Virus record (IMG/VR): IMGVR_UViG_3300028591_000169
Span: 1 to 64,000 of that record
DNA from: a virus
Lineage: Duplodnaviria; Caudoviricetes
Length of the DNA stretch: 64,000 bases
Direction: 5' to 3' (one strand)
Below the pieces are notes generated by a model. That model worked only from the letters and a program-made list of their open reading frames with translations. It was not told the origin of the DNA and made no database searches. Below are positions 27,587 through 62,436 of this stretch, piece by piece (within the stretch, counting starts at the first letter, position 1; every line of letters begins with the position of its first letter). The position numbers and the translations under genes are program-made.

Positions 27587-30430
27587 TTAGTTATTTTTCT
27601 TCTTGAACGGGACTAACGGTCTGAAAGTGAGATCCAACCCTTTATTATATCCCATGAAAGGATCGCTGCTATACTTAGGGACAGAACCAACATTAAATGC
27701 AGGAACAGGTTTTAATGCAGTTGCGGTGGTTACTTTGGCTTCGGTATTTTTTTCTGGAATCGTGGATATCGCCTCCATTCTACCAGTTAATGGATTATAA
27801 AATATACCGCCATTAACACCCGTTCTATAACCAAGGAATGCCGGATTCGTATTAATCTGGTTCATGGCAAAATTCTCTTGCCCTATTCCAGAAAGAGCCT
27901 GTAGACCATTGCTGATCTGATTACTGATAGAATTATATTTATCTCCCTCTGCTTCATAATTAAGCCTTTGAACCATCAGGTCGTTTTGTGTGTTCCGAAC
28001 CGCAGCGTCATTAAGTGCTTGCTTTCTTGCGGCATCAACCGTGTAATCAAACTGAGCCCGTTGCGCTTCCGCCTGATTATTAGCAGCCGTTACAGCATTC
28101 CGTCTCTGATTATTCGCCTCCCACGCCTGGATGAACCCAGTGCCAAGATTACCAGTAGTATTGTTATCAGCAGCAAGGATTGCAGCAGCAGAAGACGGAC
28201 CAAGACCAGAATTACGCAAAGCACGATTGGTAGCATTGCCCTGTGCGATCTGGGCATTAGCTATCATATTCTGATCAATGGGGTTATATACCTGATTCTG
28301 AAGATTAATCCTTCCTTCAGGCAACTGCGGGTTGATGTGCGGGACCGTATATCTATCGGGCTGCTGAAATACATTGTACAAACCAAGCAGGCCAGAGCCG
28401 ATAGCCCCGGCATAACGAGGCCGGGTAGGAAGAAGATTGTTGGGATCAGAAGTCGACTTGTCATCTTCTGCTGCGGAAGATGTAATATCAGAAATCGGAT
28501 GAGGAGTTATTTTTAATCCATCAGGACGAGTATTTATTACCTGATTAGGAAAATTATAGCCAGCAGGACCATCCGCATATACATAAGACGGAGCGAGCAC
28601 TTCCGAAGAATGGTTCTCATCATTTATCACAAATGCATTATGAATCCCATCTTGATTGCTTGTCGCAACACCACTGACAGACGGAGATGATGGCGCATCT
28701 GCAAAAACATAAGATGGTTCCAGGATAGTGTTCGAACGAAGAATACCGGAACCGATAGCGCCATTACCAATAGTAAAAACAGGAGGCACAACATCGGATG
28801 TTCCAAGCGTCATCGGGAAATTACGAAGAACCCCATAGCTAAAAGGAGATTTATATCCTCCTGGCCAAAAAAGATTTCCGCCATTAGCGAGAATTCTATG
28901 TTTTGCATTATCGTGCTTTTCCTCCTCAACAGCATGCACACCATATCCGATACCGCTACCAACAATAGGCATCTTATACTGCCACTCGCCATGATTCCAC
29001 CATTTATTCTTGGCGCTCTTGGCTTTCTCGAGTTCTTTTGCAGCAACTTCTGCCGCTGCTTTAACCTCATCGGTGGCACCCTCTGCCGCAGCCAACGCGG
29101 ACTTCTCCTTATAAATCTTCTCAAGTCCGGCTATCTCTTCCTCAAGAGCGGCCCGGTTATACATCGGTCCACCGGTAAATGCACCAATGGTCTTATTAGC
29201 TGCCTCAACTTGAGCACGAGTTGTCTTCGCTGATGCTTTCAGTGCGTCGACATCCGCCCTTGCTGATCTCGCCTCAAGTTCTGCAAGCGTTTGCTGGAGT
29301 GCTTTGTTATTAGGATCTGCGGCAAGATTAGCTCTTGCAATCTTTACTTCATCTGCAATAGCATTCGCGGTATTTCTAGCTGCGCTTGAGGCGGCTTTCG
29401 CTTCATCTACGACGGCGCGTGCCTCCTGAAGCATTGTCTTTCTACCAGAAGCCTCAACGAGTTTACCGGGTGCATTCTTAATCGCATTACCTATCTTTTT
29501 CAAGCCACGCCATACACTTCTTCCAATCGGGCCAGTGACTCTACCAGCCTGTCGCATGAGCGGAGAACCAAATGCCTGAGTCGCATCTTCCGGAATTAAG
29601 AAACTGGCAACTTTCCCAACAGTTGAATTATCCCACCATTCCTGTGCATCATCAATAGCCCGTACAACTTTATTGTCAGAACCAAGAGCCATTTCAAGAA
29701 GCGAAGGGACCTCTGGTGCCACATAATTGTCGCCATAATTCAGGTTGTCAAAAGAAAAAACCTCTCGTCCACCGCCGCCTACAGAAGAACCTTGCGGTTT
29801 AACACCCGGATCTCCGGGGACAACTCGACCTGGAGTGCCATCACCAAATACGCGAAGAAATCCACCATTAGCCATCATTGGCATTCCTTCTGTCGGAATA
29901 GATTCAGCAGGCCCCATCATCTGTTCAGGAGAAGCTTCCATCGGTGCCTGTTCCGGAGCAATCTGTTCCTGTTCTCCCTGAGCAAGCATCGCTTCCAACT
30001 GGTCAAGTTCTTCCGGTGAAAGCTGAGCCAGCTCATCTTCCAAGTCTCTCTGTTCCTTCGCTTGCTTCTGACTTTCCTGAGCATCTGCAAGTCTACCAAG
30101 AAGAGCTTCAAGACCGTTACGAGAAATCGGATCAAGCGGTCTCTCCTCTGCCTCTGAGAACAAATCATCGGCTATCTTGGAATACAGCTTTCCTGTATAC
30201 TTCTTCGGAAGATTGTTGTCTACAAGAAACTGTTCCTCGGCTTCAATGTTATCGGAGTAAACATAGTCCTTGTACACCGGTTCACCTTCTTCAAGGAGAT
30301 TCGGATTGCCTTCAGGGTCAACTCCAATCTGAACGCCACCGTTGGGGTTCTCCTCGTGGGAACCGCCCTCGTTGACTCTCAGATAATCTTTCGGCGCAAA
30401 ATATCCGCCATGGGTATCAAACTTCGACAT
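27587..30430 (-). CDS. Virion cargo protein (947 aa)
   Basis: NEGGSHEENPNGGVQIG...EEGE motif typical of crAss cargo proteins; hydrophobic GAIGSGLLGLYNVF segment. Confidence 0.75.
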   Translation of the reverse strand: MSKFDTHGGYFAPKDYLRVNEGGSHEENPNGGVQIGVDPEGNPNLLEEGEPVYKDYVYSDNIEAEEQFLVDNNLPKKYTGKLYSKIADDLFSEAEERPLDPISRNGLEALLGRLADAQESQKQAKEQRDLEDELAQLSPEELDQLEAMLAQGEQEQIAPEQAPMEASPEQMMGPAESIPTEGMPMMANGGFLRVFGDGTPGRVVPGDPGVKPQGSSVGGGGREVFSFDNLNYGDNYVAPEVPSLLEMALGSDNKVVRAIDDAQEWWDNSTVGKVASFLIPEDATQAFGSPLMRQAGRVTGPIGRSVWRGLKKIGNAIKNAPGKLVEASGRKTMLQEARAVVDEAKAASSAARNTANAIADEVKIARANLAADPNNKALQQTLAELEARSARADVDALKASAKTTRAQVEAANKTIGAFTGGPMYNRAALEEEIAGLEKIYKEKSALAAAEGATDEVKAAAEVAAKELEKAKSAKNKWWNHGEWQYKMPIVGSGIGYGVHAVEEEKHDNAKHRILANGGNLFWPGGYKSPFSYGVLRNFPMTLGTSDVVPPVFTIGNGAIGSGILRSNTILEPSYVFADAPSSPSVSGVATSNQDGIHNAFVINDENHSSEVLAPSYVYADGPAGYNFPNQVINTRPDGLKITPHPISDITSSAAEDDKSTSDPNNLLPTRPRYAGAIGSGLLGLYNVFQQPDRYTVPHINPQLPEGRINLQNQVYNPIDQNMIANAQIAQGNATNRALRNSGLGPSSAAAILAADNNTTGNLGTGFIQAWEANNQRRNAVTAANNQAEAQRAQFDYTVDAARKQALNDAAVRNTQNDLMVQRLNYEAEGDKYNSISNQISNGLQALSGIGQENFAMNQINTNPAFLGYRTGVNGGIFYNPLTGRMEAISTIPEKNTEAKVTTATALKPVPAFNVGSVPKYSSDPFMGYNKGLDLTFRPLVPFKKKNN

Positions 30431-30433
30431 ATC

Positions 30434-31264
30434 TTATTTAACTTTTACTCGATAAACACATCCACCATTTGTCATTATTCGCTGGACATTGGAAGGTTTC
30501 CTTTCTCTCTGAACCGCTTTCTGTCCAAGAACCTTGTCAGCATATTCCTTGATGCTCTGCTGTCTTCTGATCGGACCGCCATTGGCAACGGCATTGACCG
30601 CATTCTGCCTATGGATGTTGTCTCCAATCCGCTCGTGAGCTGCTGCAAAGTTCTGCCGTGAAGCGTCAGCAGCAAAGTCGGAATCAATCTGCAATGTCTC
30701 CTGCCTTGTCTTTGCTGCGGAGTTTCCAGTAAGAACTCCGCCAAGACCAGTACCGAGACCGATAACACCTCCAGCCAACGCACCCCAAGGTCCACCAATT
30801 TGCAATCCGGTCATTGCCCCGGACAGCGTTGAAGTCGCAACAGAACCTACCTGCTGACCAGTAGTCATTCCGCGGATATCCTGATAATTGAACTGCGGAT
30901 TGAAATTGGTCTGAGCATAGTCATTCGCAAGCTGATCATAGTTGTTATAATTGATATTACCGGCATTACGGAGATCAGCAATCTGATTCTCCTGCATCGT
31001 GGTGTCACGAATCTGAGCATCTTTGAATGCATTTGACAGAAGAGTTGTTGCGCCAGTAAGACCAGCAACAATGCCACCGGCAACAGCCTGGCCTTGCTGT
31101 GCGCGAAGGGCAGAATCCTCGGCATTATACTGATCTTCACGCCCATACCAAGAATCATTATCATTGGCTGCGTAAGCCTCAGCTAATTGCGCTCGCCTTC
31201 TTGCCGCGTCTTGATACGACCCGACAAAAGACTGATTGTACATATTATCCCACCAAGTTGCCAT
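30434..31264 (-). CDS. Small cargo / ejection protein with glycine-zipper hydrophobic segments (276 aa)
   Basis: LSGAMTGLQIGGPWGALAGGVIGLGTGLGGVL and GGIVAGLTGA segments. Confidence 0.7.
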   Translation of the reverse strand: MATWWDNMYNQSFVGSYQDAARRRAQLAEAYAANDNDSWYGREDQYNAEDSALRAQQGQAVAGGIVAGLTGATTLLSNAFKDAQIRDTTMQENQIADLRNAGNINYNNYDQLANDYAQTNFNPQFNYQDIRGMTTGQQVGSVATSTLSGAMTGLQIGGPWGALAGGVIGLGTGLGGVLTGNSAAKTRQETLQIDSDFAADASRQNFAAAHERIGDNIHRQNAVNAVANGGPIRRQQSIKEYADKVLGQKAVQRERKPSNVQRIMTNGGCVYRVKVK

Positions 31265-34200
31265 TATTCAAAATATTTAACAACTATATCATGTAACTGC
31301 ATCAGGTACTTACCGTCAACATCGTTCTTGCGGAAAAGCAGGTTAATCCAAGGATTACGAATTCGGTCCATACCATGCTTGTTCGTTCCTTCCTTCAGAG
31401 CTCTCGGGATAACCAGTCTCCAGATGCGGAACTTCTTACGGACATCATCACGATTAAACTGTTCGTGAGCAAACAGCGTAAAGCCGGTATCCTGATATTC
31501 ATCCCAGACCTTGAAGTCCGTGAATGTCTCCCACTCCTTATAGGTGTCATCGATGTCTCCATTGATGAGTTCAGTTTCGGAAACAATGGGCTCGGCATTG
31601 TCGTCAAGCACTTCGAAGAAGTCTGCCCTGTAATCAATGTTCGTCCAAATCTTGTCACCGAACGGATCAGGAGTGACGCGATACTGTGTCCAGTAATCGT
31701 ACTGCTTCCCGAAGAAGTTACAATATAAGCCCTCGTTCTGAAGCCAGAGTTTATTGTCCCGGAACGACACGAGTCGGTCTTCGACATTCGTGATCATCGG
31801 GACCTCCCGATAATCGAAGAAACTGGTGAATGCACCGAGCGTTTCATTGTAAACGAGACAAGGCTTATCGTCATTCTTGCGGACAAGATAGATATCCGAG
31901 TGAACCTTATCGTAATACGATACAATATTATTGAATTTGCTCGGAGCCCAAGGCTCAATATTGTTTATCTCGCGGAACCAAGCACCGAATCCGAGACGCG
32001 TGGACAGATTGTCAATGGCCTGACCATTGAATGAGCAGAATGCCTTGTTGATATTATCAACGAAATACAATGCATTCTTGCCTTCGATGATAGACCACTT
32101 GTTCACGCAGCCGTACTTGTTCGTGATATAACGTTTGCCGTCAACCTTGCCAGAGTTCGCAATCTCAACAGGAACTCCATCCTGCGTGGAAAGCTGGGTT
32201 CTGGAGTTGAACAGAATCTCGGATATGCCGCGATCCTGGAAAGCGATTATACTATTGCCCATTCTGCGAAGGGCTCTGCAAATACCTTTGTCGCCATCAA
32301 GCTTCAGCGTGCTTGCAAGTGTAACATGAGACCATTCGTCAATGTCTTCAGAGTCGTGCTTTTCAAGCGACCATGTAATGGAAGAGCGATAAGAATCGAG
32401 ATTGAAATCAGAATCCAGATCCCGCTGCACAATGAAATTATTGTGCTGGGAATAGACCGGATTAATCTGCCCGAACTTCTCGGCATCAATGGACGCCAAA
32501 TGACTCACGCCACGCTGCAAGTCAGTTCTTCCGTCAATGTTCACATGTGTCTCGATCATAACAGATGTGATGTCGACGACATTGTTAACAGCACCGGTAG
32601 AATACGGCTTTGTTTTCAGACAGTCCCATCTCTGGAAATAAGTATCACCCTGGTTTCCAATCAAGATATCGCTGATGCCGTCGGCGGTCATATCGGATAC
32701 AAGATGTTGAGGACCGGCTATGATAAAGCGATTGTTCTGAACAGCAGACTCCGTCGTCCCTCCGTATCTGGTGTCATCATCGAACGGGTAATATATTTCC
32801 CCGATGTACAGATAACTATCGTCTTCACCAATCGTTCTCGCCGTATTCGTGATAGGATTACCAGAAAGCGCAAATGTCCCCTGGTTAACGGAATAATCCT
32901 TGAAAGGATAAAACGCATCTTCGCTCTTCTTCGCCCAAGGAAGAACACAGCCAGTAATATCAGAAGTACGAGTAGGCAGTATTACGGATTCATTCACATG
33001 ACTTGAAAAACGGGGCAAGATTGTCTGGACATATCCATTCAGAATATTCGTCGGAAGGCTCATGACAAGATGCGGACTTGACGAATAAGTTATCTGAACA
33101 GGGATGTCGGAGAACATCGTATTCTCCTGATTATCATCAACAATGATAAAATCCTGATCATCAGCGGTAGCGAATGAACCAGAAGAATAAAGTATCGGAT
33201 AACGAAGCTTGGACGGCATCGAAAGCGATTCGTTCACAACGCCGTCATAATATCTCGTCTCACCACCGACCTTAAGACCAACATACTGGCTTGAAGTATA
33301 ATTGAAAAGCCTAACGGACTCCAGGTCATAAGTATTGTTCGTCACATTGAGGTTATTATACCATGTGACATTAGAATACTTTAAGTTGGCAAATGTCTTG
33401 GAATGAAGCTCAGAATATGTCTCATCAACCTGAGTGAAACTTCCATCCTGATTCTGATCATTGGAAACAAATGTCGTAATGCTTCCCGGATGGTGCCACA
33501 TGTGCAACCAATAACGACGAATGCTTCCATCGCGGATATAATCAATAGAATCCCAAAGCCGCCTGTTCTTTGTAGAATGATGGAACTCGGGAGCATCATC
33601 GGATTCATTTCGCTCGGTAATACCATATTCCCTCCACAGTGGCCAAGAAAGAATTCCGTTCGGAACACCGAATTTCTGATTAACAAGGTTTTCGCCAACC
33701 AATTTACCGGGAGAAGCATCAACGGTGTAATCAGATATTACGCTAGATATTTTAGCCACGCCAACTATACGAAGCTTGTACTTATCGGCGTTATCAAGAA
33801 GCATCGCCTCATGGTCAAATTCGGGCGAGTTAAGCGTGATTGTATTCTCGTCGATGAACATCAAATGCTTCTTATAATATGAAGGAGCATAATCCGGCGA
33901 AGAAGAAACATCAACATCTGACACAGAGTACCATCTATCAGTCTGTCCGCGCCTGATATTAAGAGCAGCCCTAGAATCAGTATTAGCGACAAGACCGGTA
34001 TTATATTGGAAAAAATAGTCAGTTTCCATATTGTCGTGCGTTGCAACGCACCACTGATAGAAAAGACCATCTTGATCAAGCGGAACTATATACTGAGATG
34101 GAATAGAATATTCAAGCAACTTGGAAGCTATACAATTATGGAGATGATTCTTTGTATCATTTCCACGATATTTCCCATAATCGCAAGTTGTCGTATAAAT

Positions 34201-37200
34201 TGTAATTGCGAAATTGCCGGAAGGAACAGTATATGTTCTCGATATGTCCTTTTGAATTCCAAGAGGAGACCATCGCAAAATTTCAGAAGCAAGTTCCTGT
34301 AACGCAAGTACGAATTGCTGCGAATAAAAATCGTAATTGTTTAATTCACTAATCGCCTCAGGGGTAAAGGAGATTAATTTTGCAGTAACAAGAATAAAAC
34401 TCCCATAATTTTGGTATACCGCACCTCGCGTTGCGATCTTATACAGTATAACGAAATAATCGAAATCAAGCCCGCTGTCAAAAACTTCGTCATACGAAGA
34501 ATTGTCAGAGCCATAATTTTTTATACGATAATATGGATTCGGATCTTCATCGGTAGTCCAGTAGTTACACTGGATCTCACCGGTAGACACGGTAGACTTG
34601 TTGATCGGCTGGAAATGCTTCCACGCATAATCAGACTGCCTAGGACGGCTTATCCAAGAAGACGAGGAGTAAGTGCGATTCTTAAATCTGTCCCAAACAT
34701 TGAAAACCGTAGGGTTAATGATGCCCTGAGCCTTTACGGATCTGTCGGCATTCGTGGCCTCAGCAATCATAAGATTTGCCGTAGTAAAGCCAATTTCTTT
34801 AATGAAAGAAACCAGCTGTGCCGGGAGCGAACACTCGACAACCACACGATGAATCTTGTTCCCATCTATGACAGGATACTTATCGTTTACCTTGTCGCCA
34901 ATCCAGAAGGCTTCGGTCATCGTTCCGTCGCCACGCCTGAAGCTTAAACCAAAACGATATTTTTCACCGCCCTTGAATGTTGTAATCTTGGACGATGAAT
35001 CTACCAGCTGGCTATTGTAGACATAGTTTTCTCCGGAATCATATGGAATGTCTGGCTTATTAGTGCTACCGTCGGAATACACGAATCGGATACAATCATT
35101 CGCAAATCCCTTCTCGACATCGGCGAACATCGTCGCCTTTATGATTGTCTCAAGATCGTTGTAATATTCTTTTCCTACAGACTGAATATCGCCAAGGAAC
35201 AACGTCTGATCCTTGTGCGTAAGTGTAGAAGCTCTTACAAACTGGCTTCCAAGATAAAGAAGACGCGAAGAATCTATAGACACAAGATGAGAATTGTCAT
35301 CAATGACAATAACCTCGCCCACATTCGTTGTCCCATCAAATACGATATACGATACAGTCTTCCCGTCAAGCGCACTACGGAACACGGAATAAATTCTGAA
35401 GTGATCGAACCTTGTGTCAAGATTGGAAAGACGAAGCGTAACAGCATTCATGTTCGTACCGTCAGCAGAACCACCGGTATTAACAGGAGACAGGTAAATC
35501 AAATCGGAAATCCAAACGTATCCGGACTCCTGACCATGCTTGTTATAATAGGTCATGAGATACTGGACAACGCCATTCGCTCTTGTATTTCCGGAATTGC
35601 TCTTCGATACATCTACCTCAACGCCAAAATTGACGCTTCTATTTGAATCGAAGTAAGTACCATCTGCCCACCTTACTCTTTCTTCAGATCCTGATTCAGC
35701 CATGAAATTCATGAAACGAAGCGGATGAATGCCGTCCACCCAGTATATCTTCTGGATGTCTTCAGTCTCGTAATAGACAACGGACTCAATAGGATGGTCA
35801 AGAGAGAACCCGAGATTCCCGGAGAAGAGCATGTCCGCCTTGAAGGAATCGCCATCGTAATCTATCCTGTAGATATAATCGACAGATTCTTTCTCTTCCG
35901 TATCTTGATCGATATCAGAACCGCTGTTCACGACAGTAACGGTGCATCTGGCATTAACGGTAGGATTATCCTTCGCACGAACCGTTATGACAGCGACACC
36001 AACCGCAAGCGCCTGAATGTGTCCGTCTTCTCCGACAGATACAATGCTCGTATCAGACGAGGACCACAAGGACATCTCGGCGGCGATAGTCCGATGGCCA
36101 TCCTCGTAAGTGACGGTGGCAACAAGATTGCGGGAGGTTCCGACCTGCATTCTTACATTGCTGCTGGACAGACTTATCGACCTGACATTCAATTCAGGAT
36201 GATTCGGGTTCGTGGACGGGATATCCGACTCGTCGTCAAACACGGCAACGGTTACAACATCCTTAATGACACCACCGTCAACCGACGCGGTAATGGTAGT
36301 GTACCCGGCGCTGATACCGGTGACATTACCATTCGCATCGACAATCGCTATAGACGAGTCCTGACTTGTCCAAGTCACGGTCTTATCAGTAGCATTACTC
36401 GGAGTGATACTTGCCGTCAGTTTTGCGGAAGTATTCTTTACGAGGTTAAGGCTCTTCGGAGAAACAGAAAGATTAGTCACCTGGATGTAACCCCCGACAG
36501 AAACCTGACAGGTGTCTGTATATCCACCGTCTACCGTAGTTACTGTGACGAGCGCATTACCCTTGCCAACACCGACAACATTGCCATTCTGGTCAACGGT
36601 AACGATATCAGAATTCGAACTCGACCAAGATACATCCTGAATATATGCGCCGTTCGGATAAATGGTGTAACCAAGATGCGCCTTGGCTCCGACGCCAAGA
36701 CTGAGCGTATTCCTGTCAAGCTTGATTCCGGTAACAGCCTTATTGATGGGCACGAGATAATCCGTCGGGTCTTCAACGACGTGAACGGTCAGAAGTCTCG
36801 TTACGTTCGGAAATTCCTCACAATAGACATTGTAGTATATGACGCCGTCAGGAACATCAGCATTAGCACGGATGTATATACGATACTTTCCGTTCTCGGT
36901 TGTATCGCTGAAAACGGAGACATTCGCGGTAGTGGTTCCATCAAGTCTCTGAACTTTGATGCGCCCGCCAACATCGCCATTGGAATTCTTTCCGAAAGCA
37001 AGAACGACTCCATCCGCTCCGCCCTTCTGGACAACCTTGACGTTCTCGGATAATTCTATCTCGACAACATCAGTAGGCTCGGGATTGACAGGAGAAATAT
37101 ATTTCTCGTAGTAACCGCCAAGGACCTCGACCCAGACCGGATAATAGATATACGGATTGGACTTGAGGTAAAAGGTAACCGGGACGATGCCGTAATCATA

Positions 37201-38097
37201 GCCGCGGGCTATACGGACAAAATCTTTCTCTGAATTGATAAAGGATACGACTCTTGTCTCAGGAATAATCCAGCCTATATCCGTCGTATGGTCTTCAATC
37301 TGTTCGAATTCGTCATTGTCGTAAACGACTAAACTCGTCTTGAACGGATTCTTCCTTATCGCTGTAGATTCGTAAATCGAAATATCGTCGTTATAATAGA
37401 ACTCGATGCTGTCATTTCCACAAACAAGCCGAAGACCTTCATCTTCTGTTTTCTGATTGACGACATGGACGGTGCAGGTTGCGATGCCGAATTCCGGGTA
37501 TGTAGGATTGTAGACCTTTATATGATATGTACCGGCAGAGTGAGCCTTGAACCATGTTATCGTATTCGTTCCTCCAAACTCCTGCTTGTATTCAAGCGTG
37601 AGTTTATTTACGGACTGCTCGTCAGGAACGAATTCCCAACGACCACGATAGTTCTGTGACTTGACGAGTTCGCTCTTGTAATCGCCACCCATACCCCTTG
37701 CGCGGACGCAGAACAGCTGGTTCTTCTGAACCGTTACTTCTTCCGGCGCAAGAAAGATAGTATAAGGGATGTGATAGTTTTCTCCAGGAACCTCGTCATT
37801 GGCAACGACATTGACATTCAATATCGCATATTTACTGCGATCTACAACCGAATAGACACGAACAGTAGTAGAACCGGCGGATACACCTTTGATAGTTATA
37901 ACCGTATCATAGTAATCCTTATACTTGGCTACGGAACCGCCAACATAGCGAACGACATCCTTGTCTTCGACTATGACCTCGACGACACTCTTGTCTACAG
38001 CGCCGGTATCAGTAATTACTTCGGCCTTGATCTGGGCCTGTTCATTTTTATTGACAACGACGCTGTATTTTGATAACCGTATGCTTGCAATGGACAT
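31264..38097 (-). CDS. Muzzle / tail stabilisation protein, main part, with N-terminal Ig-like array (2277 aa)
   Basis: From 35883 downward it shows crAss muzzle motifs (GNLGFSLDHPIE...QKIYWVDG, KGGEKYRFG, QGDTYFQRWDCLKT, ANSGKVDGKRY, DRIRNPW). Big_2-like repeats precede this. Confidence 0.88.
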   Translation of the reverse strand: MSIASIRLSKYSVVVNKNEQAQIKAEVITDTGAVDKSVVEVIVEDKDVVRYVGGSVAKYKDYYDTVITIKGVSAGSTTVRVYSVVDRSKYAILNVNVVANDEVPGENYHIPYTIFLAPEEVTVQKNQLFCVRARGMGGDYKSELVKSQNYRGRWEFVPDEQSVNKLTLEYKQEFGGTNTITWFKAHSAGTYHIKVYNPTYPEFGIATCTVHVVNQKTEDEGLRLVCGNDSIEFYYNDDISIYESTAIRKNPFKTSLVVYDNDEFEQIEDHTTDIGWIIPETRVVSFINSEKDFVRIARGYDYGIVPVTFYLKSNPYIYYPVWVEVLGGYYEKYISPVNPEPTDVVEIELSENVKVVQKGGADGVVLAFGKNSNGDVGGRIKVQRLDGTTTANVSVFSDTTENGKYRIYIRANADVPDGVIYYNVYCEEFPNVTRLLTVHVVEDPTDYLVPINKAVTGIKLDRNTLSLGVGAKAHLGYTIYPNGAYIQDVSWSSSNSDIVTVDQNGNVVGVGKGNALVTVTTVDGGYTDTCQVSVGGYIQVTNLSVSPKSLNLVKNTSAKLTASITPSNATDKTVTWTSQDSSIAIVDANGNVTGISAGYTTITASVDGGVIKDVVTVAVFDDESDIPSTNPNHPELNVRSISLSSSNVRMQVGTSRNLVATVTYEDGHRTIAAEMSLWSSSDTSIVSVGEDGHIQALAVGVAVITVRAKDNPTVNARCTVTVVNSGSDIDQDTEEKESVDYIYRIDYDGDSFKADMLFSGNLGFSLDHPIESVVYYETEDIQKIYWVDGIHPLRFMNFMAESGSEERVRWADGTYFDSNRSVNFGVEVDVSKSNSGNTRANGVVQYLMTYYNKHGQESGYVWISDLIYLSPVNTGGSADGTNMNAVTLRLSNLDTRFDHFRIYSVFRSALDGKTVSYIVFDGTTNVGEVIVIDDNSHLVSIDSSRLLYLGSQFVRASTLTHKDQTLFLGDIQSVGKEYYNDLETIIKATMFADVEKGFANDCIRFVYSDGSTNKPDIPYDSGENYVYNSQLVDSSSKITTFKGGEKYRFGLSFRRGDGTMTEAFWIGDKVNDKYPVIDGNKIHRVVVECSLPAQLVSFIKEIGFTTANLMIAEATNADRSVKAQGIINPTVFNVWDRFKNRTYSSSSWISRPRQSDYAWKHFQPINKSTVSTGEIQCNYWTTDEDPNPYYRIKNYGSDNSSYDEVFDSGLDFDYFVILYKIATRGAVYQNYGSFILVTAKLISFTPEAISELNNYDFYSQQFVLALQELASEILRWSPLGIQKDISRTYTVPSGNFAITIYTTTCDYGKYRGNDTKNHLHNCIASKLLEYSIPSQYIVPLDQDGLFYQWCVATHDNMETDYFFQYNTGLVANTDSRAALNIRRGQTDRWYSVSDVDVSSSPDYAPSYYKKHLMFIDENTITLNSPEFDHEAMLLDNADKYKLRIVGVAKISSVISDYTVDASPGKLVGENLVNQKFGVPNGILSWPLWREYGITERNESDDAPEFHHSTKNRRLWDSIDYIRDGSIRRYWLHMWHHPGSITTFVSNDQNQDGSFTQVDETYSELHSKTFANLKYSNVTWYNNLNVTNNTYDLESVRLFNYTSSQYVGLKVGGETRYYDGVVNESLSMPSKLRYPILYSSGSFATADDQDFIIVDDNQENTMFSDIPVQITYSSSPHLVMSLPTNILNGYVQTILPRFSSHVNESVILPTRTSDITGCVLPWAKKSEDAFYPFKDYSVNQGTFALSGNPITNTARTIGEDDSYLYIGEIYYPFDDDTRYGGTTESAVQNNRFIIAGPQHLVSDMTADGISDILIGNQGDTYFQRWDCLKTKPYSTGAVNNVVDITSVMIETHVNIDGRTDLQRGVSHLASIDAEKFGQINPVYSQHNNFIVQRDLDSDFNLDSYRSSITWSLEKHDSEDIDEWSHVTLASTLKLDGDKGICRALRRMGNSIIAFQDRGISEILFNSRTQLSTQDGVPVEIANSGKVDGKRYITNKYGCVNKWSIIEGKNALYFVDNINKAFCSFNGQAIDNLSTRLGFGAWFREINNIEPWAPSKFNNIVSYYDKVHSDIYLVRKNDDKPCLVYNETLGAFTSFFDYREVPMITNVEDRLVSFRDNKLWLQNEGLYCNFFGKQYDYWTQYRVTPDPFGDKIWTNIDYRADFFEVLDDNAEPIVSETELINGDIDDTYKEWETFTDFKVWDEYQDTGFTLFAHEQFNRDDVRKKFRIWRLVIPRALKEGTNKHGMDRIRNPWINLLFRKNDVDGKYLMQLHDIVVKYFE

Positions 38098-38109
38098 ATG
38101 TCTAATCTT

Positions 38110-38379
38110 TTATTCGCCAGTATTCGTCTTCACTGCATCGTCGTGAAGGAAAAGGATGATGTGATTCTTCAGAACATTCCAGCCGACAACTTTACCAGGA
38201 AGTTCCGGAAGCGGAATCTCCTTAGTCCCGCGCTCGTTGGTCACAGATAGAAGAGTGTCGTGATCGCGGGCAATGATGCGGATATTATGATTCTCATACG
38301 CAGAAGACTCGCCTGCCTTTGAAATGGACAGGTCGCGGTTCATGCCTTTGTTCTGTAAGACGAATGCCTTCTGTTTCAT
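38110..38379 (-). CDS. N-terminal fragment of the muzzle protein (89 aa)
   Basis: KGMNRDLSISK...NIRIIARDHDTLLSVTNERG...GWNVLKNHIILF is the usual crAss muzzle N-terminus; it is in frame with the next ORF. Confidence 0.8.
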   Translation of the reverse strand: MKQKAFVLQNKGMNRDLSISKAGESSAYENHNIRIIARDHDTLLSVTNERGTKEIPLPELPGKVVGWNVLKNHIILFLHDDAVKTNTGE

Positions 38380-38382
38380 ACC

Positions 38383-39120
38383 CTAATGTCTTTTCCAGTA
38401 TTCCTTTGCACCGTTGTCGAAGAACGCCTTCCAGTGCTGGTTGTTTCTCGGAAGCAAGGTCTTGAACGAATTGAACAGCGTTTCCGCCTTGTCGAGATCG
38501 AGACGGGAGAATTCATTCTGGGCATCACCAACGGACCAGCAATATTCCTGCTGCGCATTGGCGAACACCTGCTGCGATATCTTCCCCATATCGAACTGGA
38601 TAGTGAACCACTGTAGTTTAATGTAGTTCTCAAGTCCGCGAAGGAAAGACGCGTTGTCGGGAAGAAGCGGATAGCCCTCCTCGTCAACAGCGAAACCGCG
38701 ATATGCAACTTCGACATCAACATCCTTCGTGGAGGTGAAGATGACCATTCCCTGCGTCTTATAAGTGAGTTCACCCGTGAGCAAAGCATCCGGCTTGATA
38801 TCGGACATATGAAACGAATGACCGGAATAGCGATAGACCGGACCGAAGAATCCGGGCTTTCGGCAACAGTCGAGCCAGCGTTTTGCGTGCTGACGACCAG
38901 CCATTCTTACCTGGATCATCTCAACGAAATCACAGGGCAACTGACCGCGCCAATTATGGACATCAACGATTGCCGTCTTCTCGTCATACAGCGCCGGAGT
39001 CCCCATCAGCTCGATGAAGTCAATTGCATATTCGACGGCAGTCTCGAAAGGGATGTCTCGCATCATCGGATGACGCATCACCCTGTCAAGGATTCTTCGT
39101 ATGTTGGTTGTCTGGTTCAT
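38383..39120 (-). CDS. Tail ring / tubular protein (245 aa)
   Basis: Position immediately before the muzzle; GQLPCDF and YCWSVGDAQ motifs. Confidence 0.7.
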   Translation of the reverse strand: MNQTTNIRRILDRVMRHPMMRDIPFETAVEYAIDFIELMGTPALYDEKTAIVDVHNWRGQLPCDFVEMIQVRMAGRQHAKRWLDCCRKPGFFGPVYRYSGHSFHMSDIKPDALLTGELTYKTQGMVIFTSTKDVDVEVAYRGFAVDEEGYPLLPDNASFLRGLENYIKLQWFTIQFDMGKISQQVFANAQQEYCWSVGDAQNEFSRLDLDKAETLFNSFKTLLPRNNQHWKAFFDNGAKEYWKRH

Positions 39121-62312: not shown

Positions 62313-62436
62313 GGACAAGGTGGAATTTGAATCCACACGTCCTTCCGAGACTATTATTGGTCATTGAAGTCATCTCAATGTAGGGGTTACTCCTATTTAA
62401 GACCATTCTTTAGCATATCCAATCTGCCTCTTGCCC
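62313..62436 (-). ncRNA. tRNA-like RNA with expanded, branched anticodon arm (non-canonical)
   Basis: Acceptor GGGCAAG/CTTGTCC; D-like arm GCA-GATTGGATA-TGC; T arm GTGGA-TTCAAAT-TCCAC; variable hairpin GTCT/GGAC; 38-nt loop inside a TGGTC/GACCA stem. Confidence 0.6.

Follow-up and report, generated by a model that had tools for sequence, protein, structure and literature searches.

The muzzle of this crAss-like phage is probably composed of two polypeptides encoded by adjacent, translationally coupled genes, an 89-aa chain that would supply blade 1 of the propeller in trans and a 2277-aa chain on which an array of Ig-like domains would form a free N-terminal arm. In crassviruses, a dominant gut phage group, the muzzle acts as the conserved gatekeeper of the tail tip, and to our knowledge it has so far been treated as a single chain. 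A literature search found no published description of a split muzzle. Both Ig-decorated virion proteins and a podophage nozzle propeller that is completed by a second chain are known already, and what appears to be new, from the comparative data below, is a widespread split-muzzle variant in Crassvirales.

Genetic context and structure of the muzzle locus

The stretch of DNA analysed (the window) covers 64 kb of an IMG/VR virus record of 79.4 kb, and the genome at hand is ~82% complete. The gene content of the window is crAss-like, with genes for ring protein 1, muzzle and cargo protein 1, and giant ORFs lie further downstream. The gene for ring protein 1 ends 3 nt upstream of the start of the 89-aa ORF, so that the muzzle directly follows ring protein 1 in the tail module, and a cargo protein 1 domain is encoded downstream. 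The features of the locus are as follows.

38383..39120, minus strand: ring protein 1 gene (Pfam CrAss_Ring_1, PF24228, E 1e-60)
38113..38379, minus strand: ORF of 89 aa for the muzzle N-terminal fragment (Pfam crAss_MUZ; gp44, 7qok; also in a 92%-identical phage)
38110..38112, minus strand: TAA stop of the N-fragment ORF, kept in L001/L016
38098..38109, minus strand: 12-nt spacer AAG ATT AGA CAT with an A-rich start context, resembling other operon starts
38095..38097, minus strand: ATG of the 2277-aa ORF; M[S/A]IAS[I/V]RLS is the start of each of the 13 full-length variants (clusters P0001 and P0002)
35890..38097, minus strand: insertion of 736 aa, predicted to form about seven Ig-like beta-sandwich domains in tandem (AF2 model, Foldseek)
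35929..36729, minus strand: three Big_2 repeats at the C-terminal end of the Ig array (Pfam PF02368, E about 1e-38; PHROG 215 and 341)
31267..35889, minus strand: muzzle core, comprising blade 2 onward, IG1/IG2, the crass domain and the C-terminal blades (gp44, Pfam)

The first-pass annotation had described the junction as one ochre codon and four sense codons dividing a shared frame, and the letters at 38379-38095 on the minus strand, read back as ...GGC GAA TAA AAG ATT AGA CAT ATG TCC, agree with that description. The 89-aa ORF (38379..38110, minus strand) and the 2277-aa ORF (38097..31264, minus strand) are separated by 12 nt, and the 282 nt from start to start (38379-38097) correspond to 94 codons, which places the two ORFs in the same frame. 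Translation through both muzzle ORFs meets one stop, the TAA.

The product of the small ORF had been taken for a muzzle N-terminus, and this identification was upheld by a match to positions 7-84 of Pfam crAss_MUZ (PF25731; E 2e-19, 69.7 bits against a cut-off of 27) and by alignment to residues 11-85 of gp44 of PhicrAss001 (E 3e-15). As IG1 (163-292) has been placed between blades 2 and 3 (Bayfield et al. 2023, PMC10172136), gp44 residues 1-85 should correspond approximately to blade 1, and the break would fall in the loop between blades 1 and 2. The columns that are invariant in the split fragments (e.g. GM.RD, N.N.RI, DT, T.ERG and GWNVL) recur in the unsplit muzzle N-termini of relatives. 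After the last strand, the split N-fragments mostly have LF-L-H and the unsplit muzzles LF-T-H (alignment A2), and in this alignment LF-L-H is a small sequence signature accompanying the split state.

The 2277-aa product aligns to gp44 residues 87-1370 (E 6e-158) beginning at its own residue 737. As the alignment resumes only there, 736 residues have been inserted exactly at the break, between the equivalents of gp44 residues 85 and 87, in keeping with the earlier proposal that the Ig insertion begins right at the break. This product also matches Pfam crAss_MUZ (E 7e-186, 621 bits, cut-off 27) and crAss_MUZ_C (PF25729; 29.1 bits, cut-off 27), and the crAss_MUZ profile is covered at positions 7-85, 80-320, 403-619 and 612-1224. 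Thus, two adjacent genes each encode part of one propeller (gp44 residues 11-85 and 87-1370), and no single ORF encodes all seven blades, a conserved TAA following residue 89. By homology the locus is a member of the crAss_MUZ family, but its predicted architecture is one of two genes.

The AF2 model of the insert (pLDDT 71.7) is all-beta, with about seven beta-sandwich domains at approximately residues 1-98, 109-224, 232-325, 346-441, 457-535, 542-620 and 638-723, the first beta-strand starting at residue 3 and the last extending to residue 723. Foldseek searches with this model returned tandem Ig arrays, including titin, Nup210, S-layer and phage Ig-decorated proteins, and the insert also matches PHROG 215 and 341, which are Ig-domain structural proteins. 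No Pfam family was found over the first 450 aa of the insert.

Stop-codon usage and read-through

A muzzle of two chains has to be weighed against read-through of the TAA, programmed or suppressor-mediated, which would yield a single functional muzzle of ~2371 aa in which the Ig array would form a closed loop joining blade 1 to blade 2. The shared frame is compatible with this, as only the TAA and four sense codons lie between the ORFs and there is no further stop. Fused relatives (see below) also show that a loop topology is viable, at least for inserts of up to ~480 aa. However, of the three stops, all of which occur in the genome, TAA is the commonest, terminating 27 of 51 long ORFs. The phage uses the standard genetic code, and with table 11 no other large ORF is interrupted.

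ARAGORN, run both with and without intron mode, detected no tRNA in the ~82% of the genome covered by the search, and a suppressor tRNA could lie in the remaining ~18%. A tRNA-like RNA is present at 62313-62436, which would favour read-through, but this locus was not called by ARAGORN in either mode and had no Rfam tRNA match, and nothing ties it to the decoding of TAA. The predicted fold of the 121 nt around the stop, which has the context TAA-A, was not significant (z -0.05). Hence neither a suppressor tRNA or codon reassignment nor a stimulatory RNA structure or context was identified in the sequence at hand.

The arrangement at the junction is also that of an ordinary operon boundary. Gaps at most junctions of the operon are -4 to +12 nt with A-rich sequence before the ATG, the muzzle junction is alike, and the start context of the 2277-aa ORF resembles others, e.g. 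the one upstream of 27587-30430. Of the 19 junctions between adjacent genes in the operon, 5 keep the frame, where 1 in 3 is expected by chance, so the shared frame of the muzzle ORFs is within chance expectation. Furthermore, one base change would be enough to fuse the ORFs, but none of the listed variants has such a change. Read-through as the route to the functional muzzle is therefore very unlikely, although some read-through product may be made alongside the two chains.

Two other ways of joining the parts were considered and rejected. Intein-like trans-splicing is contradicted by the lack of Cys, Ser or Thr plus His-Asn residues at the junction and of an intein-sized domain, and an intron by the insert being coding, in frame and under purifying selection.

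Conservation and selection at the junction

An independent 98.6-kb IMG/VR contig (L001/L016) shares 92-93% DNA identity with the window over 8-9 kb, and the TAA, spacer and ATG in it are identical. Compared with L016, the small ORF has 12 synonymous and no non-synonymous differences (100% aa identity; dN/dS 0). For the large ORF, dN/dS against L001/L016 is 0.03-0.04 in the insert and 0.008-0.03 in the muzzle core.

The 90% identity cluster of the small ORF has 23 members. Among the 15 listed, 13 are 89 aa long and two stop at 84-85 aa, and the listed variants occur on dozens of ENA, Logan and JGI contigs. Amino acid variation in the small ORF is concentrated in the last 8 residues, and the position of the stop is kept nonetheless. 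The full-length variants of the large ORF (two clusters, n=13) are 2247-2278 aa long and all start with MSIAS or MAIAS. A fused form of ~2370 aa was not found in a protein search spanning 1252-3985 aa. The lengths of the longest contigs listed for small-ORF members agree with those listed for large-ORF members, indicating that the two ORFs lie on the same contigs and are co-inherited, and both parts are under selection (dN/dS 0 and 0.008-0.04).

A scan of IMG/VR and the JGI metagenomes for the junction pattern, with NNN at the stop, recovered one relative only, which was already known, and a blastn search of GenBank phages with the junction region found no match. The crAss phages in GenBank recovered by protein searches are all <60% identical in the N-fragment, and the listed GenBank protein matches are annotated as products of stabilization, virion-structural or hypothetical protein genes.

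These data bear on whether the 89-aa ORF might be a dispensable remnant, blade 1 being either unnecessary to the large chain or replaced in it by an Ig domain. In favour of this, two muzzle ORFs, P0274 (1529 aa) and P0314 (1541 aa), have neither the N-fragment nor an insert. However, the 12 synonymous and no non-synonymous differences from L016 are not what a remnant would show, the columns that are invariant in split fragments are also found in the unsplit N-termini of relatives, and the fragment is kept beside the large ORF on the same contigs. It is thus highly unlikely that the small ORF is dispensable.

An error in sequencing or assembly, or a nonsense mutation that inactivated the gene recently, has in its favour only the in-frame stop and the existence of broken copies such as P0130, with a large ORF truncated to 866 aa in one assembly, but it is for practical purposes refuted by the conservation data, the same stop being present in the independent 98.6-kb contig and on dozens of ENA, Logan and JGI contigs, with strong purifying selection on both ORFs and neither the relaxed selection nor the sporadic occurrence of a pseudogene or artefact. 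The first-pass annotation had argued that the break is not a random error and had proposed examining the stop in relatives; the junction kept in a 92%-identical phage, with strong purifying selection on both sides, and the 89-aa length of 13 of the 15 listed small-ORF variants bear that argument out.

The truncated copy P0130 belongs to cluster 1 and lies on a 98.8-kb contig. Its 866-aa large ORF has a divergent tail, which is probably due to a frameshift or assembly error.

Recurrence of the split in related muzzles

Short muzzle N-fragments, found among proteins of 48-156 aa, form 56 clusters with 52-99% identity to the N-fragment of the window. In 40 of the 56 clusters the protein ends 5-14 residues past the HIILF strand, and the tails differ. 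An N-fragment subgroup of 116-125 aa has a loop insertion of ~35 aa. This insertion, which lies in blade 1 and includes an LRITED.ELR-like motif, was seen in L005/L022, P0167, P0171, P0172, P0175, P0176, P0186 and P0189, a subgroup that comprises both unsplit and split forms, the latter being those of 116-125 aa.

The large partner shows the corresponding arrangement. The N-fragment is missing from 14 clusters of the 120 closest muzzle proteins; these have M[A/S/E] directly at an insert of 316-743 aa, and the first domains of the inserts vary among the 14. Split pairs of other lineages include P0157 with P0216, which share an 8016-bp contig, and P0180, P0192, P0207, P0208, P0209, P0211, P0225, P0230, P0279, P0285 and P0311 are further examples of proteins from split pairs. 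About 90 of the 120 are single chains with no insert. However, at least seven single-chain muzzles (P0277, P0287, P0301, P0305, P0315, P0222 and P0308) carry an insert of 128-482 aa at the same site, and as fused muzzles with inserts exist, the insert does not force the split. In these proteins, large inserts and the split are strongly but not obligatorily associated.

The single-chain proteins with an insert in the blade 1/blade 2 loop also include P0331, and the inserts are Big_2-like, unrelated or of low complexity. On the predicted blade boundaries, this loop accepts insertions generally and is a hotspot for them.

When a tree is drawn from the C-terminal 380 aa, eight split forms group as one clade (support 100), two more form a pair and the others are five scattered rows, and ~7 changes of state are needed on this tree. 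However, the muzzle gene is mosaic (31264-38097 compared with P0002 and P0132), and some of the changes may therefore be cassette transfers rather than fresh fissions. Near-identical phages that differ only in the crass domain likewise mark the muzzle gene as a recombination hotspot.

A profile scan for muzzle N-termini in IMG/VR (20 loci) and GTDB genomes (2 loci) found no further split locus.

The P0274 (1529 aa) and P0314 (1541 aa) proteins, which have neither N-fragment nor insert, start ~14-21 residues into the core, within blade 2, and form a clade with support of 99. They may represent a second type of split at a slightly later position, or their starts may be mis-called. A search for P0274 in IMG/VR found no match.

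Proposed assembly of the muzzle

Two alternatives had been put forward for the break, a separate chain completing the propeller in trans or a single chain made by read-through. Of these, the first is well supported by comparative sequence data, namely the conserved stop and start, purifying selection and the recurrence of the split with many different inserts, while no positive support was obtained for the second. We infer that the two chains are translated separately and assemble in trans, and that the Ig array acts as an arm.

According to this proposal, coupled translation would give the two chains in roughly equimolar amounts, and the small chain, blade 1, would dock into the propeller in trans. 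The second chain, of 2277 aa, would consist of about seven Ig-like domains in line, followed by blade 2 and the rest of the muzzle. The loop that joins blades 1 and 2 would be both the place where the array was acquired and the precise site of the gene fission. The array is rod-like with its ends far apart, and so is a poor fit as a closed loop; fission would free its N-terminus to give a free N-terminal arm. As the muzzle is hexameric, six Ig arms would be displayed at the tail tip, where they would probably serve in adhesion to glycans on the host or in its surroundings.

More speculatively, fission between blades 1 and 2 could be a selected and repeatedly evolved (or transferred) way to mount long Ig arms, with the 83-89-aa (or 116-125-aa) blade as a natural complementation fragment, a suggestion that we regard as possible rather than likely. 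If it is true, a whole clade of crAss-like phages would have six exchangeable N-terminal muzzle arms as a host-range or adhesion module.

A divided muzzle has practical consequences, in that gene callers and annotators will mislabel the 89-aa ORF as an orphan and its large neighbour as a giant Ig protein. It would also provide a natural example of a beta-propeller blade contributed by a separate chain, and it points to an exchangeable Ig-arm module at the site of contact with the host, which would bear on host range.

Comparison with known systems

The muzzle of PhicrAss001, gp44 (PDB 7QOK), is a hexamer with a ring-joining domain, a seven-bladed propeller and a crass domain, and with IG1 (163-292) between blades 2 and 3 and IG2 inside blade 3 (Bayfield et al. 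2023, PMC10172136). The muzzle described here resembles gp44 in its homology over the whole length, in its domain plan and in the position of the gene after that for ring protein 1. However, gp44 is one chain of 1371 aa, whereas in the present muzzle the coding sequence is interrupted after blade 1, with 736 aa of Ig-like sequence at the interruption. Variation in muzzle length due to insertions in the crass and IG2 regions has been noted previously, but neither an insertion between blades 1 and 2 nor a split was reported (PMC10172136).

An in-frame stop inside a structural gene is a feature shared with the recoded crAss-like phages. Some crAss-like phages reassign TAG or TGA with the help of suppressor tRNAs. 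In contrast, the muzzle locus in the window has a single TAA rather than many TAG or TGA codons, TAA is the genome's principal stop, and the search of ~82% of the genome gave no suppressor tRNA. More distant IMG/VR relatives (L007, L008 and L026) have many in-frame stops in their muzzle genes when translated with table 11, as is expected of stop-recoded lineages, and by this measure the phage in the window is unlike them.

[quoted passage not shown] There, one chain contributes strands that blades 1 and 2 of its partner lack, and one chain bears a long extended element and an Ig-like domain (PMC13730344). The A1002 cryo-EM structure thus shows that completion of a propeller in trans works in the podophage nozzle class. 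However, the complementing strands in A1002 are the C-terminal end of a 620-aa fibre-docking protein, whereas here the small chain is predicted to be one blade alone and the array is on the large chain.

The three Big_2 repeats and the further Ig-like domains are similar to the Ig (Big_2) decoration of other phage proteins. Ig-like decoration domains are thought to confer weak adhesion to carbohydrates and are usually located at the C-terminal end of the protein that carries them. In contrast, the array in this muzzle is predicted to be N-terminal and to have arisen by gene fission inside a propeller.
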